A stretch of DNA of 61,565 nt from a virus. Lineage: Duplodnaviria > Caudoviricetes. The stretch spans positions 1 through 61,565 of IMG/VR virus record IMGVR_UViG_3300044941_000051, one strand, 5' to 3'. Shown here piece after piece: positions 39,556 to 45,413 of the stretch. A model generated the notes under the pieces. That model was not told the origin of the DNA, ran no database searches, and was given only the letters and a program-made list of their open reading frames with translations. Position 1 is the first letter of the stretch. Each line of letters opens with the position of its first letter. The position numbers and the translations under genes are program-made.

Positions 39556-39789
39556 TCAGTTGTCGTTGTCGAAGTCAAACTCGAGCTGTCCATTCTCGGG
39601 CAGCTCTTTGGGTTGGTCAAGCAGTGCTTGCTCGACTTTGGCAAGATCGAACCGGTAGGCACGGTCCATCTTGATGTAGCAGTTGCCGGGGATCGTGCCT
39701 TGCTTACACATCGCAAGGACGGTGCCCTGCGAAATGTTGAAGTACGCAGCCAGCTCTGACGTCTTCACGTATTTGGTTTGCGGGGTCAT
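39556..39789 (-). CDS. Excisionase-like HTH DNA-binding protein
   Basis: VKTSELAAYFNISQGTV...G.IP...YRFDL. Confidence 0.7.
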   Translation of the reverse strand: MTPQTKYVKTSELAAYFNISQGTVLAMCKQGTIPGNCYIKMDRAYRFDLAKVEQALLDQPKELPENGQLEFDFDNDN

Positions 39790-40206: not shown

Positions 40207-42633
40207 CTAGGCTTGTTTGTCAAGCTCGTTCTTATATAGCTTGATGATCTGCGTGTGGATGTCAATCTTATTATCTAGCAGCTCGTAGACACGTTTTTCT
40301 ACAGGCGACCCGACCAGCTGGAAGACGGTACAGCGGTTGGTCTGCCCCTTGCGGTGCACCCGCGCGTTGGCCTGCGCGTAGATCTCCAGCGACGGCACCG
40401 GGCCCCACCAGACGACGGTGTCGGCGGCGGTCAGCGTCACCCCGTGCGCTGCGGCCTGGGGCTGGATGATCAGCACCCGAGGGTCGGGTTCGGTCTGGAA
40501 CCGATGGAAGATCTGCGTGCGCTCCGAAGCCGGCACCTCGCCGCTGATGAGCTCGCATGTGTACCTGTCAGCGCGCAGGTTCTTGGCCACCAGCTTGATC
40601 GTGTGCCTGAACGGCACGAAGACAAGCACCTTCCGCGGGGCTTCCTGCAGCACCTCCAGGAGGGCGCTGTACCGGCCGGACACGTCGAACTCCAACGTGT
40701 TCTGGTTGTCGGTGTAGACCGATCCGCACGCAATCTGGATTAGCTTGTTCATTACCACAGCGGCGTTGGCTGCAGTGACGCTTTCGCCCGATGCCTCTAG
40801 CAGTGCTTGTTTGCGCAGCTTGTCGTAGTAGAATTTCTGCTGCTTGCTCATCGGCACGTCGCGGCGGACGTACACCATCTCCGGCAGATCGAGGCACTCC
40901 ATCTTGGAAAACCGGATCGCCGGCTGCAGTGCGTTGTGCACGGTGTCGACCGCTGTGTCTTTGACACCCCACTTGAACTGGGTGATCTTGTACATGACCA
41001 TGTCGCGGAACGCCGTGAACGTCGACGGCACGCCGCGCGGGTTGACCAGCTTTGCCAGCCCATATGCCTGCACCGGCCCCTGCGCTGCGGGAGTGCCTGT
41101 CATCATCCACAGCCAGGTTTCGGGTTGCAATATCGCGTTCAATGCGCGCCAGCGGGCGGTGTTCTTGTTGGAGTAATGGGAGCAGTTGTGGACTAGGTAT
41201 CCGGGCCCAACAAAGTAGTTAGGTGTTCCGTCAACTTCGAGGTTATAGACGTATTCTCCACTTCGTGGTTCCAGATAGACAACACTGTCCACCCAAGCTC
41301 CTGCAGCTTGGCGGTTTTCTTCGCATCCCGCTGTTGGCCAAGCGCAGTCCGATGCGATGATCCGTTCACCTCCAGACCTACTTTTTTCTTTGGCCATGCG
41401 AAGTCGAGCTTGTAGTTTGTAGGATAGCCCAGCTGCCGTCCCCCCAACGCTACTGGGAAGTTCCATACCCAGTTGGGGGGCAGCATCGGCATCAGTATAC
41501 TCTCTGAGGTCGTAGGCCCATGCCCGTTGCCCCCGCGCGTAACCGGACGATACCCAGCGGTCTTTGCTATCTCGGATAGTTTTTGTCGGGTTGCTTCTGA
41601 TTTCGGCACCCCCCTTTGGAGCTGGGAAGTCTCCCACCTCTGCTTTGCGGTGAGATTTCGAAGCGCTGATTGACCCGGATGTAGGGCATGCCATCTCTTC
41701 CGACCGCAAGATTTCGAGCAAGTCATCCCGACTTGCGTGCCACGCCTTCTCCAGAAATTCCACGCCGACGTTCTTTGTCGGTACTCTTTTGCGCAGATAC
41801 CGCAGATCATGTGTAGAAATGAGCCGTCGACCCGCAAGATTTCTGGCGCATACCCAACCCCAATCAGTGAAGAACGGATGTTCTGGAGTGCATCGGATGA
41901 CGTCACCATTTTTTAGTCGCACCTCCACCAGGCTTGTTGGGACTGATTTCGTCGTAGCTTTAATAGTACGAACTCCAGCAGAAGTAAGAACGCGGTCTCC
42001 TGCGACAAGGGTTTCTATTTTTCGGGGGCCTTCGGGGGTGTGGACCTCGGTCCCAGCCACAAAACACTCGTCGACGATCACCAGATCGAAGCCGCCCTCG
42101 ACCAGCTCCTTCTTCACCACTCCGACGCCGTCGTAGTTGATGATGATGAACTGCGCGCCGTTGGCGATGACCTTCCGGCGCTTTTCGGCGGTGCCGTAGG
42201 CAACGTCGACTGTGCGGTGCATGGCTACGGAGAATAGGTCACTCCGCCATGCCGCGTCCATGATCGACACGGGGCACACAATGAGTACGCGCTTTACCGC
42301 TCCGATGGAAAGCAGATAGTCCGCAGCCCAAATTGCGCTGGCGCTTTTCCCCGTCCCTTGCTCGTTAAAGCAAAAACACCTTTTGTGCAGAGTGAGAAAC
42401 GCGGCAGTTGCCCGCTGATGGGCCATAGGGCGGAACCGCCCCGGCCAGCCGTAGTTCTTCTCAATCGGGGATGGTGCAGGCAGGCTGAGCTTACGCAGGG
42501 CTTGCGCCTGCGGCAGGGCCCAGCGCACGGCAACGGTGTGTTCGTCTAGAGCCTTGGCGTCAGGCACGGCTGCCAGAACCCGCGCGGGGTTCTTCAGGCG
42601 CAGCAAGAGCGCCTTGTTCTCGATGATCTGCAT
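40207..42633 (-). CDS. SNF2/DEAH-family helicase, intein-containing
   Basis: EQGTGKS motif I, VIVDE|CSH motif II split by an intein, MTGTP motif III, QANARVHRKGQ motif VI. Confidence 0.9.
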   Translation of the reverse strand: MQIIENKALLLRLKNPARVLAAVPDAKALDEHTVAVRWALPQAQALRKLSLPAPSPIEKNYGWPGRFRPMAHQRATAAFLTLHKRCFCFNEQGTGKSASAIWAADYLLSIGAVKRVLIVCPVSIMDAAWRSDLFSVAMHRTVDVAYGTAEKRRKVIANGAQFIIINYDGVGVVKKELVEGGFDLVIVDECFVAGTEVHTPEGPRKIETLVAGDRVLTSAGVRTIKATTKSVPTSLVEVRLKNGDVIRCTPEHPFFTDWGWVCARNLAGRRLISTHDLRYLRKRVPTKNVGVEFLEKAWHASRDDLLEILRSEEMACPTSGSISASKSHRKAEVGDFPAPKGGAEIRSNPTKTIRDSKDRWVSSGYARGQRAWAYDLREYTDADAAPQLGMELPSSVGGTAAGLSYKLQARLRMAKEKSRSGGERIIASDCAWPTAGCEENRQAAGAWVDSVVYLEPRSGEYVYNLEVDGTPNYFVGPGYLVHNCSHYSNKNTARWRALNAILQPETWLWMMTGTPAAQGPVQAYGLAKLVNPRGVPSTFTAFRDMVMYKITQFKWGVKDTAVDTVHNALQPAIRFSKMECLDLPEMVYVRRDVPMSKQQKFYYDKLRKQALLEASGESVTAANAAVVMNKLIQIACGSVYTDNQNTLEFDVSGRYSALLEVLQEAPRKVLVFVPFRHTIKLVAKNLRADRYTCELISGEVPASERTQIFHRFQTEPDPRVLIIQPQAAAHGVTLTAADTVVWWGPVPSLEIYAQANARVHRKGQTNRCTVFQLVGSPVEKRVYELLDNKIDIHTQIIKLYKNELDKQA
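41185..42066 (-). mobile_element. Intein (294 aa) in helicase motif II
   Basis: Starts CFVAGTEV, block B CTPEHPF, block F VYNLEVDGTPNYFV, ends LVHN followed by Cys. Confidence 0.92.
41193..41909 (-). CDS. Vsr/DUF559-like endonuclease nested out of frame inside the intein
   Basis: CxxC/CSxxC, NUMOD3-like KSEATRQKLSE, YKLDFAW..KVGLEVNGSSH..RDAKK..LQELGWTVLSIWN; GGAGGT 11 nt upstream of the ATG. Confidence 0.8.
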   Translation of the reverse strand: MVTSSDALQNIRSSLIGVGYAPEILRVDGSFLHMICGICAKEYRQRTSAWNFWRRRGTQVGMTCSKSCGRKRWHALHPGQSALRNLTAKQRWETSQLQRGVPKSEATRQKLSEIAKTAGYRPVTRGGNGHGPTTSESILMPMLPPNWVWNFPVALGGRQLGYPTNYKLDFAWPKKKVGLEVNGSSHRTALGQQRDAKKTAKLQELGWTVLSIWNHEVENTSITSKLTEHLTTLLGPDT

Positions 42634-42637
42634 CGGC

Positions 42638-42907
42638 TCACTTCTTCGGGGGTTTGCTCATTCGGCCGCCAGCGGCACGGTTCTTGCTCGGAGACTGCAG
42701 GCGGACACCGTCGGCGTTAGACCCGCCTCGGGCCAGCGGCTTGTTGTGCGCGAGGTCCTTGCCGGCGCGAGCGCTGCGGCCGTTCTTCTTGTCGAAGGCG
42801 TCGCGGGCCCGCTCCCGCTCCTTGCGGGCGTCATGCTCACCGCGAGCGATCTGCAGGCGGTATTCTCTCTTGTAGTTCCGGTCGCGTTCGGGGTTCTTGT
42901 AGGGCAT
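42638..42907 (-). CDS. Small HNH-like basic protein
   Basis: GKDLAHNKPLARGGSN...SKNRA. Confidence 0.65.
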   Translation of the reverse strand: MPYKNPERDRNYKREYRLQIARGEHDARKERERARDAFDKKNGRSARAGKDLAHNKPLARGGSNADGVRLQSPSKNRAAGGRMSKPPKK

Positions 42908-43578
42908 CAGTTGTCACCATGGTGGGGGCACTCCGTCACCGGGCAGTGCCGTTTGCACAGGCCGCTCGGCTTCGGGTTCCACACGCCGGTCGAGAAGGCC
43001 GCTGCCATCTTATCATAGTCGGCGAGCCACTTCTGCCACATTTCCTTGGTCTCGCTGCGGGTGTACTCGGCCTTGGTGAGGTTCCTGGCGATGACGAAGA
43101 AGAGCCCCGCCTTGATGTGCTTCAGCTGCGGGAAGTGCCGGAACATGGCCATAGCCATCAGCTCCAGCTGCCCCTTGTCCGCGTACCTGGCGCTGGCGCC
43201 GCTCTTGTAATCCACGATCCGGGCGCGGTCCCCGTCGATGATCGCGAGGTCCACGATGCCACGGAACCAGACATCGGGCGCGTCGAATGCGCAAGGCTCC
43301 AGTCGGTCCGTCAGACCGAGCCTATACTCGCAGAGCTTCTCGCCAGGCAGTGCCGCCAGCCACTCGAGCGCCGCTTGCGCGAAGGCAAACTCGGGCGGCA
43401 GCGGGGCGCCGTCTCGGATGAATTGCTCCGCTGCCAGATGAAAAGCCGTCCCGTACCGGGTCGCCTCGGTCTCCCGGAATGGGAACTGCTTGAGCACGTT
43501 CACGTGGTAGAACTGTTTGGGACAAGTCTGGAAAGCCTTGATACGGCTGAAAGACCACGGAGCCGGGCTATGTGTCAT
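42907..43578 (-). CDS. Cas4-like PD-(D/E)XK exonuclease
   Basis: WSFS..CPKQF, GTAFH, RGIVDL..IVDYKSG, QLELMA, C-terminal CxxxCPxxxC. Confidence 0.85.
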   Translation of the reverse strand: MTHSPAPWSFSRIKAFQTCPKQFYHVNVLKQFPFRETEATRYGTAFHLAAEQFIRDGAPLPPEFAFAQAALEWLAALPGEKLCEYRLGLTDRLEPCAFDAPDVWFRGIVDLAIIDGDRARIVDYKSGASARYADKGQLELMAMAMFRHFPQLKHIKAGLFFVIARNLTKAEYTRSETKEMWQKWLADYDKMAAAFSTGVWNPKPSGLCKRHCPVTECPHHGDN

Positions 43579-45413
43579 TCGCACCCACCATAGGTTTTGC
43601 CTACCCCCGACTCGCAGTTGACCGGCAGCCCTGTCGCCCAGGCTGGCGTCCAGCGCATGCAGTCCTCGATGTACCGCCGCGCCTCGTCCACCTCGGCTTC
43701 CGGGACGCAGGATATCACGCTGTCATGAACAGTCAAGACCACTTTGTATCGTTTAGCTATCTTTAGCATCTGCTCGGCCACAATGCAGCGCGCAAGGGCC
43801 TGAACGCAGTTTTCGACACATTTGCCGCCGTATATACGGGTTGGACCTTCCCGAGTGTCGTAGACATACTCGTAGCCCTTTTCGCCCTCTTGCGCCCGCA
43901 AGTTATCGTAGAGGATCGGCAGGCCGCTCGGTAAGATAATCCCGCCCCGTCTGGGGTCGACGTCGACCACACCGGGCCTACCGAGCTGGATGCTGTCGCC
44001 CAGCACCATGTGCTTCAACGCAAGCTGCGCCTGCTTCCACAGCTCGACGATCTTGTCGTTGGTGCGCCGGTACACGTCGATGATGCGACGTGCCTCGTCG
44101 ATGTCGACCTCAACCGGAGGAAACCCGGTCTTGAGATAAGTCTGGAACTTCGCGGCGCCCATACCGTAACCGCACCCGAGCACGGCGGTCTTACCGACGT
44201 GCCGCTGCGACTTGTCCACGCTGGTGATCGGTATGCCGTAGATGGACACTGCCATCTTTTTGTACACATCTTCACGCTTGGCGAACGCCTCGACAAGATC
44301 GTCCTGCCCCGCCCACCAGGCAAGCACCCGGGCTTCGATTTGGCTTGAGTCGCAGTCGATAAGCATGTAGCCTTCTGGTGCGACTATGGCGTTCTTGATT
44401 TGTTTGGCGTTGGGTCCGCGTGACGGTAAATTCTGGAGGTTAATGAACTCAGTTCCACCCCACCGCCCAGTGTGTGCCGCGTAATATCGAAGCGGGATCG
44501 GAAGCGTTCCCCGACTACCTATGTCAATAAACCGCTGCGTGCGCGTCTCTTCGATTGTCGTCTTGTTTCCCAGCCGTGCCTCGACAAGAGCCTGCACCGC
44601 CAGTGACTCATGCTCCCGTAGCGCCAAAAACTCCTCGTCGGTCTTGGCGAACGCATAGGCCGGCTTGCCCGTGCGAGCGCTCATCTTCACGGGCGGCGTA
44701 ACTCCCTGCGCCTCGAGCATCGTGGCGAACTTCGGGTTGGACATCAGATCGGCCTTGTCGGCGACGCCGGCGTCCACCAGCAGCTGCGCCTTGGCCCGCA
44801 TGGTGTTCAGCAGGTGCCCTTCGAGATGAGGCACATCCAGCTGCAGCACGGGGTCCGTGAACATCCGCAGGGTCAGGTCGATCAGCCGAAGCTCCTGCTG
44901 CGGGAACCCAGCTGCCATCATGCGGTTGAAAATCTCCCACGTCAGGTCCGCGTCCTTGACGCAATAAGCGCCGTAGAGCGCGAGATCCTCGGGCGTGAAA
45001 TCCCCCCGGCGCTTGCCGACGGCCCGGGCTACCTCGGTGCCCTTCTCCCCAACACCGTAGCGCTCGGCGACAGCAGCCAGGCTGTGGCGTGCGTTCACCC
45101 CGTGCAGTGCCCGGGACATGCACATGGTGTCCAGCAGGCGCGCAGGCTTGATGCCACAGCGCCAGGACAGGATGGCACCGTCGAACATGGTGTTGTGAGA
45201 CAGCAGCGCGCTGCGGCTCCAGTCGAACTGACGCAGGAACTCCAGCGTAGCCTTGGCGGGCCCGGAGAACCACTGCGTCGGCTGGTCGTTGACCTTGGCG
45301 GCTACCCCGATAACCTGAAACTCAGGGCTGCGGATATACTCTTCTGTCGTCAGCTTGGACAGGCTGTAGGTCTTTGAGTAGTAGGTTTCGAAGTCTAGGG
45401 TGATGATGTTCAT
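43575..45413 (-). CDS. polA: DNA polymerase family A with 3'-5' exonuclease
   Basis: LDFET exo I; DSSQIEAR motif A; KTAVLGCGYG motif B; TVHDS motif C. Confidence 0.92.
   Translation of the reverse strand: MNIITLDFETYYSKTYSLSKLTTEEYIRSPEFQVIGVAAKVNDQPTQWFSGPAKATLEFLRQFDWSRSALLSHNTMFDGAILSWRCGIKPARLLDTMCMSRALHGVNARHSLAAVAERYGVGEKGTEVARAVGKRRGDFTPEDLALYGAYCVKDADLTWEIFNRMMAAGFPQQELRLIDLTLRMFTDPVLQLDVPHLEGHLLNTMRAKAQLLVDAGVADKADLMSNPKFATMLEAQGVTPPVKMSARTGKPAYAFAKTDEEFLALREHESLAVQALVEARLGNKTTIEETRTQRFIDIGSRGTLPIPLRYYAAHTGRWGGTEFINLQNLPSRGPNAKQIKNAIVAPEGYMLIDCDSSQIEARVLAWWAGQDDLVEAFAKREDVYKKMAVSIYGIPITSVDKSQRHVGKTAVLGCGYGMGAAKFQTYLKTGFPPVEVDIDEARRIIDVYRRTNDKIVELWKQAQLALKHMVLGDSIQLGRPGVVDVDPRRGGIILPSGLPILYDNLRAQEGEKGYEYVYDTREGPTRIYGGKCVENCVQALARCIVAEQMLKIAKRYKVVLTVHDSVISCVPEAEVDEARRYIEDCMRWTPAWATGLPVNCESGVGKTYGGCE

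Follow-up and report, generated by a model that had tools for sequence, protein, structure and literature searches.

The window analysed here, which is the whole of the 61,565-bp IMG/VR virus record IMGVR_UViG_3300044941_000051 (rated complete by CheckV), carries a gene for a superfamily 2 (SF2) helicase of SNF2 type that contains an intein. Within the intein lies a second open reading frame (ORF), same-strand and +1 to the helicase frame, whose product is a putative homing endonuclease. An original prediction, made from the letters of the sequence, had proposed that about 700 bp are read in both frames. We find this double coding to be well founded, as judged from family membership, fold prediction, per-frame selection, stop avoidance, and the presence of the same layout in independent genomes. 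The features discussed below are collected in Table 1.

Table 1. Features of the helicase gene, its intein and the nested endonuclease frame (positions in the window; aa, amino acids; pLDDT, predicted local distance difference test)
Feature	Position	Strand	Description
SF2/SNF2-type helicase gene	40207..42633	minus	808-aa precursor, 514 aa post-splicing; ORF with Pfam SNF2-rel_dom, ResIII, Helicase_C
N-extein, aa 1-189	42067..42633	minus	C-terminal end ...FDLVIVDE (motif II)
Intein, 294 aa (precursor aa 190-483)	41185..42066	minus	C1...TPEH...LVHN, then +1 Cys
N-terminal splicing domain, intein aa 1-92	41791..42066	minus	pLDDT 97-98; last ~40 codons double as start of endonuclease ORF
In-frame intein linker, aa 93-250	41317..41790	minus	Open, predicted disordered, unconserved as protein; pLDDT ~45
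C-terminal splicing domain, intein aa 251-294	41185..41316	minus	pLDDT ~96; doubly coded with endonuclease C-terminus
C-extein, aa 484-808	40207..41184	minus	Starts CSHYSNKN
Nested ORF, putative homing endonuclease	41193..41909	minus	238 aa + TAG; +1 to helicase frame, entirely within intein
Zinc finger CxxC...CxxxC (eL24/TRASH/FCS-like), endonuclease residues 36-68	41706..41804	minus	Individual Cys conserved in 56 or 57 of the 58 sequences
Vsr/DUF559/EDxHD-type nuclease domain, endonuclease residues 127-227	41229..41531	minus	D169, E180, H186, D195
GGAGGT Shine-Dalgarno-like site	41921..41926	minus	11 nt upstream of ATG (41909); helicase-frame part of V-E-V

The helicase gene and its intein

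The helicase frame is open over all 808 aa, and the intein is inserted directly after the DE of helicase motif II, with junctions that read DE/CFVAG…LVHN/CSH (here and below a slash marks the junction); the 3' end of the intein reads ...GYLVHN. The sequence features that characterize class 1 inteins were found at the expected places. The N-terminal nucleophile is C190 of the precursor, directly after VIVDE, and this residue (C1 of the intein) is invariant in 56 of 56 aligned inteins. Block B (TxxH) is present as RCTPEH, with H63 invariant in the same alignment, and the C-terminal His-Asn and following nucleophile read LVHN/CSH, with H293 and N294 again invariant. Two Pfam profiles match the helicase ORF above their cut-offs, Intein_splicing (PF14890; 38.0 bits, cut-off 35.8) and Hint_2 (PF13403; 33.1 bits, cut-off 28.4), and this intein is the sole intein match across the whole record. 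The claim that an intein with intact splicing blocks sits in an open helicase frame is thereby confirmed.

An AlphaFold model of the intein, built on the 56-sequence alignment, was confident at both ends (pLDDT 97-98 over aa 1-90 and ~96 over aa 255-294) and fell to ~45 over aa 93-250; the Hint-like assignment of this model rests on pLDDT and the profile matches. The original prediction had described an in-frame middle of about 180 aa in which no nuclease could be recognized. That middle is indeed predicted to be structureless, but its length is closer to 160 aa, and over the linker there are no helicase-frame stops where ~7 would be expected. On the model, the helicase frame amounts to a mini-intein whose linker is long and structureless. 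The intein appears to be of class 1 type and looks competent to splice; the spliced helicase would have the 514 aa that had been expected.

Identity of the nested frame

The 238-aa product of the nested ORF matches the Pfam family DUF559 (PF04480; E=6.5e-10), as do 58 of 58 aligned endonuclease relatives, which upholds the earlier reading of this second frame as a nuclease gene. Its TAG overlaps the Leu-Val codons of LVHN; the last base lies 8 nucleotides (nt) before the final base of the intein, a correction to the 6 nt originally given. When a profile of the 58 relatives was compared with the PDB, it matched 3hrl, which is a DUF559 structure (E=7.4e-10), and 3r3p, the I-Bth0305I catalytic domain (E=0.0028). 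Modelling of both frames with AlphaFold, which the original prediction had proposed as a check, gave a disordered in-frame middle, as noted above, and a confident fold for the nested protein (mean pLDDT 82.4, confident over residues 20-225). Residues 127-227 of this model were aligned by VIA-align with 3hrl (Z 8.9; 75 residues aligned, 2.2 A), with I-Bth0305I (3r3p; Z 8.3; 79 aligned, 3.0 A) and with E. coli Vsr in complex with DNA (1cw0; Z 8.0; 89 aligned, 3.1 A). A Foldseek search of the PDB with the whole endonuclease model returned no match at E<=0.001, the best having E about 0.01-0.04 with probability 0.99-1.0.

Four residues, D169, E180, H186 and D195, are invariant in 58 of 58 endonuclease sequences. 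Their spacing equals that of I-Bth0305I D196, E206, H213 and D222 (H and D gaps 17 and 9), the equivalence of D169 with D196 resting on spacing in that the hidden Markov model alignment to 3r3p begins after D169. As described by Taylor et al. (2011, PMC3239194), these I-Bth0305I residues are equated with Vsr D51, (F62), H69 and D97. Over the zinc-finger region the 58-sequence profile matches eL24 (E=1.5e-4), and the region resembles an eL24/TRASH-type zinc ribbon. Of the domains originally named, the zinc finger and the Vsr/DUF559 nuclease stand, but NUMOD3 does not: no NUMOD motif was matched by Pfam in the window endonuclease at E<=0.1, and NUMOD3 was matched in 1 of 58 relatives at E<=0.01. 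From the models and the sequence comparisons we predict a nuclease of Vsr-like fold and I-Bth0305I (EDxHD) type. We infer its endonuclease activity, and the target proposed below, from sequence.

Each frame leaves its own signature

To compare substitution in the two frames we used 24 greedily chosen pairs of loci (56-94% nt identity), codon-aligned on the endonuclease and divided into regions according to the structure models of the window. Ratios of nonsynonymous to synonymous differences per site (pN/pS) were calculated by the method of Nei and Gojobori; these estimates are pairwise, and in overlapping frames they are mutually confounded. In the middle of the overlap (endonuclease residues 42-199; 2955 codon pairs), pN/pS was 0.37 in the endonuclease frame (dN/dS 0.20) and 1.36 in the helicase frame (dN/dS 1.49), so that the per-frame check suggested with the original prediction comes out in favor of the endonuclease. 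Differences per site in this region were 0.28, 0.22 and 0.48 at endonuclease codon positions 1, 2 and 3, and endonuclease aa identity was higher than that of the helicase frame (frame 0) in 24 of 24 pairs; for the pair formed by the window and locus L020 the values were 0.50 and 0.29. The balance differs toward the ends. Where the ORF overlaps the N-terminal splicing domain, the tighter constraint is on the helicase frame (pN/pS 0.48 vs 0.66 for the endonuclease), and where it overlaps the C-terminal splicing domain both frames are constrained (0.71 helicase, 0.64 endonuclease). It is clear that the endonuclease frame is under purifying selection in the middle of the overlap.

GC content by codon position follows the same division. 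Across 66 unique loci it is 0.56/0.41/0.61 in the exteins and 0.50/0.44/0.58 in the core when read in the endonuclease frame, the pattern of low second and high third positions having shifted to that frame. The window has 0.61/0.41/0.81 in its exteins and 0.53/0.50/0.61 in the core in endonuclease phase.

We also asked how often frame 0 would be closed by chance, by permuting synonymous codons within each endonuclease ORF and counting the resulting helicase-frame stops. No such stop occurs at any of the 66 unique loci, where a mean of 8.9 would be expected, and at each locus at most 0.2% of permutations reached zero; for the window the mean expectation was 7.1, and 0 of 1000 permutations were stop-free. 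The third frame has stops about as expected (15.1 vs 14.4). The effect can be seen at individual codons: before a codon that starts with AA, AG or GA, 0 of 4035 codons end in T, against 23% elsewhere. As one example, Gln219 of frame 0 is invariant as the shadow of the invariant endonuclease pair Tyr166-Lys167, which is written TAC-AAR because TAT-AAR would make a TAA in the helicase frame. There is selection against stops in frame 0.

The +1 layout recurs in phages and bacteria

A search with the nested protein alone had as its sole relative L006, a free-standing Vsr-like protein of 110 aa, and the family was reached with an alignment of five endonucleases. Searching IMG/VR with this alignment gave 110 confirmed relatives, of which the best 80 were kept. 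In 78 of these 80 viral loci the endonuclease lies inside a same-strand ORF of 488-1773 codons, always in the +1 frame and always with the third frame closed; the remaining two, L045 and L077, are free-standing full-length homologues. Among GTDB species genomes, 16 of 21 loci are nested in +1, four are free-standing (L182, L184, L188, L189), and one is a marginal non-member. The GTDB loci include Ktedonobacter racemifer DSM 44963 as well as metagenome-assembled genomes labelled Acidobacteriaceae, Epsilonproteobacteria, Dependentiae, Patescibacteria, Cyanobacteriota, Polyangiaceae and others. Metagenome loci were nested in +1 in 3 of 3 cases. At no viral, GTDB, GenBank or metagenome locus was an in-frame endonuclease seen, nor one in +2 except at the marginal L190.

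GenBank phages gave a comparable result. Megablast of the helicase gene against phage records had no match; a TBLASTN query with the nested protein identified 38 records, in each of which the match lay beneath one annotated gene. We inspected four isolates, Pseudomonas phage MR14 and Vibrio phages CP-T1, 104E43.1 and 1.088.O. In all four an unannotated homologue of 209-261 aa occupies the +1 frame of an annotated helicase coding sequence of 862-993 aa, and all read DE/CFPAGT ... VHN/CHH. The feature tables shown for these records (L001-L004; MT104474, JQ177061, MW824411, MG592463) have neither intein nor nested ORF, and the gene is called "putative helicase", "hypothetical protein" or "P-loop NTPase". 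The description of the arrangement as rare is wrong for this family.

The 78 viral loci, the four GenBank phages and the window together provide 83 loci with a spanning ORF. Intein boundaries, sought with the patterns DE/C[FLIVMY]... and ...HN/(C, S or T), were both found in 77 of them, which provide 66 distinct intein DNAs (266-375 aa). The remaining six comprise two contig ends (L014, L057), three loci with no HN (L029, L044, L058) and one with no DEC (L051). At L044 (131-1649) the stop of the helicase frame comes a few bases ahead of that of the endonuclease, possibly a split or decayed intein; at L029 (2055-5300) the endonuclease-frame ORF has 357 codons and no HN junction was found; and at L058 (783-5642) the intein apparently ends VKN rather than VHN. 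The residue at +1 of the extein and its context vary (CSHY, CNAY, CHH, CHT, SHRMKN, SSILK), and thus different SF2 helicase families share this insertion point.

Because the same layout is found in most of the related phage and bacterial sequences examined, we take it for an evolved design rather than an error of sequencing. The opposite view, that indel errors in assembly have displaced an endonuclease that is truly in frame, draws on the fact that the window is metagenome-derived and on nothing further. It would need two compensating indels together with a frame 0 that is stop-free by chance, which none of the permutations produced, and the same +1 register is present in the 78 viral contigs, in the isolate phages and in the 16 bacterial genome loci. 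In addition, contigs assembled from two sequencing runs match the parts that they cover of 40900-42300 with no differences or gaps (X1, 40900-42155; X3, 40900-41541 and 41731-42300), although both come from one sample, possibly the source sample, and are not independent. Compensating indels, which the original prediction had named as a possible undoing of its claim, are in effect refuted, and we give this view practically no credence. An inserted G behind 41944 was discounted, as it came from unrelated high-depth contigs that match just 35 nt with 4 mismatches. The runs with a high share of 40900-42300 are all labelled hot-springs or microbial-mat metagenome, and no RNA run is among those listed; four were compared, from one sample.

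Probable initiation within the helicase message

The GGAGGT site that had been proposed as the ribosome-binding site of the nested ORF lies ahead of the ATG. Members of the SNF2-type subgroup, the window among them, have a TTG or ATG at intein codon 50-52 behind a GGAGGT-like site. In those of the DEAH type it is GAGGT that precedes an ATG, at about codon 87-91, so that the ORF starts ~35 codons further downstream. A motif resembling a Shine-Dalgarno (SD) sequence and a start codon precede the zinc finger in most relatives, and the endonuclease model needs residues from ~20 on, which fits the ATG at 41909.

The original prediction had left two routes of expression side by side, separate initiation and a frameshift at a run of six A residues (41914..41909). 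In the latter case, the N-extein and the first ~51 intein residues would become joined to the endonuclease at the A6 run, whether through transcriptional slippage or through programmed +1 ribosomal frameshifting. The run is located exactly at the start of the nested ORF, and a fusion resembling such a product exists among database representatives: P0048 (496 aa) has the N-extein and N-intein fused in frame to the endonuclease. The frameshift is nevertheless improbable, because in the endonuclease frame a TAA stands two codons ahead of the ATG, leaving a 2-codon window for a shift, and because the A-run is missing in the closest relatives (L007-L012, L015, L021), which retain GGAGGT and a TTG start. 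The later start of the DEAH-type ORF is a further point against it, as is the normal nested +1 layout of three metagenome relatives of P0048. We consider it most likely that the endonuclease is made by independent initiation at its own ATG behind GGAGGT, and put the chance of the fusion route very low; of the two routes, then, separate initiation is favored and the shift at the A6 run is unsupported.

P0048 itself was found in a search of 1.84 billion representative proteins that gave 26,405 profile matches, 999 of them at E<=1e-30. The top 150, among which it falls, were inspected; they are 158-496 aa long and include no full-length helicase fusion. The N-terminal splicing domain is complete in P0048, whose end coincides with the endonuclease stop, and the DNA behind this protein was not found in the viral contigs searched. 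Its origin may lie in an indel, in a fractured gene, or in an artefact of gene calling or assembly.

Empty sites and possible movement between helicases

Among the 80 viral contigs most similar to the window in the C-extein (58-82% aa identity), 78 are intein-less and two carry an intein of 879 nt. The empty motif II reads VDE/A[ST]HY..., apart from two of the 78 that read VDE/CNAY. In the nearest C-extein relative, L087 (82%), the codons GTC GAT GAA/GCG TCT CAC TAC TCT AAT give VDE/ASHYSNKN, and the motif-II region of this empty site is ...GTCGATGAA/GCGTCTCAC...; compared with L087, the window has the intein and a Cys instead of Ala at +1. Patchy presence of this kind among close helicase relatives is consistent with the pattern that a homing element gives. 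The intein-less alleles L092 and L094, which read VDE/CNAYKNAQ, already have at +1 the Cys that intein-bearing alleles need, and may be sites from which an intein was precisely lost, or else pre-adapted ones.

For 381 of 2145 pairs the identity of the endonucleases is above that of the exteins by a margin of more than 0.25 (for example L024/L030, 58% vs 14%), which hints at jumps between non-orthologous helicases via the shared DE motif. In Mantel tests the endonuclease core was correlated with the extein flanks (Spearman 0.54) and with the first 45 intein residues (0.21), both with p=0.001; these results are too noisy to prove co-inheritance of the endonuclease and the splicing domain.

One of the free-standing homologues deserves description. 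At L045 (2968-5099) an endonuclease of 212 aa lies directly upstream of a DEAH-type helicase gene and overlaps its start. The helicase frame breaks exactly at the intein insertion point, ...IIIDE being followed by RTPRSSSDL and a stop, while ..NGHHAAAPTYKK follows in the +1 frame. An additional base after GAT GAA would account for the break, which may reflect misassembly, a scar, or a helicase that is split or frameshifted in nature.

In the window, the helicase gene is flanked by a PD-(D/E)XK nuclease gene (42907..43584) and a helix-turn-helix gene (39556..39789), neighbors that are consistent with a replication/recombination module. Between the nuclease gene and the helicase is a very basic ORF of 89 aa (42638-42907, minus strand) whose stop region abuts the helicase start; it had no match in a Pfam search.

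A probable composite selfish element

We consider it highly likely that the locus holds a composite selfish element, made up of a mini-intein in motif II and a homing endonuclease encoded in the +1 frame of the same DNA. The element would reside in the Walker-B/motif-II codons (DE/x) of a phage SF2 helicase. In the helicase frame, two Hint domains would be joined by the predicted-disordered linker of ~160 aa, of which the sole demand would be that it stay stop-free; the precursor would be translated through, and protein splicing would restore the 514-aa helicase. In the +1 frame, the 238-aa enzyme would consist of the zinc finger, a helical linker and the Vsr-like EDxHD/DUF559 nuclease, and would be initiated independently inside the helicase mRNA, at the ATG behind GGAGGT. 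In helicase alleles that lack the intein, the enzyme would cleave near ...GTCGATGAA/GCG..., and repair of the cut allele by recombination would copy in the whole element.

As to origin, it is plausible that a free-standing endonuclease invaded a mini-intein, because free-standing full-length relatives exist (L045, L077, L182, L184, L188, L189). A single ancestral invasion might then have been followed by freezing of the +1 register, since any indel would break one of the two products. That one ancient event of this kind, its register frozen, spread across non-orthologous SF2 helicases (SNF2-like and DEAH-like) of phages of many bacterial phyla by way of the shared DE-x is a tentative proposal, to which we give somewhat less than an even chance.

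Several observations count against the composite element as we describe it. The 24 pairs in the substitution test are not fully independent, with the near-identical L059/L060 and L015/L016/L017 entering separate pairs. The stop test took only loci with a spanning ORF, and therefore shows that openness of frame 0 does not come free given the endonuclease sequence, not how often it fails. A simple scan found no SD-like motif in some relatives, and where present these motifs overlap conserved frame-0 peptides (V-E-V; D-E-V-L), so that they may be conserved on account of the intein and not as signals for translation; they may also serve both readings. P0048 hints that other registers or a frameshift product may exist. 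No near-identical copy of the intein was found in a divergent extein among the best 80 of the 110 relatives, and the closest endonuclease relative there has 59% aa identity, so recent homing of the window copy is no more than a possibility. Finally, the window enzyme has N182 where 54 of 58 relatives carry D.

The last two points also lend themselves to a different reading, in which the nested ORF is a decaying or domesticated relic that no longer functions in homing in this phage, and the intein survives by splicing alone. The weak third-position GC of the nested frame (0.61, against 0.81 in the exteins) can be added in its favor. The ORF, however, is intact and retains the four invariant active-site residues, and active I-Bth0305I likewise has Asn (N208) at the position equivalent to 182; N182 is therefore no argument for inactivation. 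Purifying selection is family-wide, the window-L020 pair included, and the intein is sporadically distributed among close helicases. We regard a relic as unlikely, and the composite element, with a functional endonuclease, as the better account of the locus.

Implications

These results turn the out-of-frame intein endonuclease from a curiosity into a common and deeply conserved design. The dual constraint is measurable, with the endonuclease ruling the middle of the overlap, the splicing domain ruling the N-terminal end, both ruling the C-terminal end, and stop avoidance acting throughout. The family is a natural system for studying how two proteins share DNA, how internal initiation is tuned, and how inteins gain endonucleases or split. 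There is also a practical consequence for annotation. The nested gene is unannotated in the four GenBank phage records inspected, and so pipelines and intein surveys that consider only the in-frame product miss it, and would call the intein middle degenerate or unknown. The family may offer new site-specific nucleases, of zinc-finger and Vsr type, that are aimed at a universal helicase motif. If the single ancient invasion proposed above is true, the element would be, among phages, the largest and the oldest example known of dual coding on one strand over a long stretch (about 600-900 nt). It would also be a living intermediate towards the fractured genes discussed below, and a whole homing endonuclease family would have been left unannotated inside helicase genes.

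Relation to known inteins and endonucleases

Out-of-frame intein endonucleases have already been published, and it is the same-strand, +1, Vsr-like type in helicase motif II, together with its abundance, that is apparently new, though an earlier report may exist. In the literature searched, with subscription journals, Gorbalenya 1998 and preprint supplements outside its scope, we found neither a contiguous motif-II intein of a helicase with a Vsr/DUF559 endonuclease nested on the same strand nor a family this large. The original prediction had correctly mentioned out-of-frame intein endonucleases of actinophages. As described by Gosselin, Arsenault and Gogarten (bioRxiv 10.1101/2025.01.02.630785), non-canonical actinophage inteins carry antisense LAGLIDADG, antisense VSR-like or same-strand "frame 3" endonuclease VII-like enzymes; these enzymes occur in genes for DNA polymerase, minor capsid, terminase and thymidylate synthase, in architectures that are called rare. 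The window has what places an intein in this group, namely an endonuclease ORF inside the intein, an extein frame that is open with no stops, and an alternative frame that is constrained while the extein frame is relaxed over the middle of the overlap (24/24 pairs). It shares with the actinophage inteins, as there described, the contiguous intein, the fold-less in-frame middle, the sporadic distribution, and the proposed origin through a free-standing endonuclease that invaded. It differs from them in that the enzyme is Vsr-like, on the same strand and in +1, that the host is an SF2 helicase interrupted at motif II, and that there are many members, in viral contigs and in Vibrio and Pseudomonas isolates.

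A cyanobacterial dnaX intein with an out-of-frame LAGLIDADG enzyme is described by Phillips, DeSimone and Gogarten (bioRxiv 10.64898/2026.09.14.751524, which cites Gorbalenya 1998). There, as here, the overlapping-frame endonuclease is under purifying selection and dN/dS of the extein frame is raised over the overlap; the dnaX case involves LAGLIDADG on cyanobacterial chromosomes, whereas ours involves a Vsr-like enzyme in a helicase. An HNH endonuclease that is read out of frame has also been described in an in-frame insertion in a phage methylase, the ShiLan insertion (PMC11855218). In that insertion too the host frame is open, the endonuclease is on the same strand in another frame, and its stop falls within the last bases of the insertion; unlike our intein, the ShiLan insertion is described as having no detectable splicing domains, and its nuclease is HNH.

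The enzyme itself is most readily compared with I-Bth0305I of the EDxHD group, as described by Taylor et al. (2011, PMC3239194; 3r3p). The active-site residues and their spacing (D..E.N/D...H...D) are alike, as is the two-part build with an N-terminal DNA-binding region. I-Bth0305I, however, belongs to a group I intron and has NUMOD/HTH modules, whereas the window protein has a four-Cys zinc finger and its gene is nested in an intein; sequence similarity between the two is weak, as the profile match above indicates, and Pfam puts the window protein in DUF559.

The fractured genes described by Dassa et al. (2009, PMC2677866), in which a free-standing Vsr-like or GIY-YIG endonuclease lies between the halves of a split intein, also place a Vsr-like endonuclease within the intein of phage DNA-metabolism genes, helicases (gp41) included. 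There the host is split into two genes and splices in trans, and the 3' end of the endonuclease gene overlaps the downstream intein part by 6-69 bp. Here, in place of two ORFs with half an intein each, there is a single open 808-aa frame with a contiguous intein, likewise free of frame-0 stops in 66 of 66 loci, and the overlap extends over ~717 nt.

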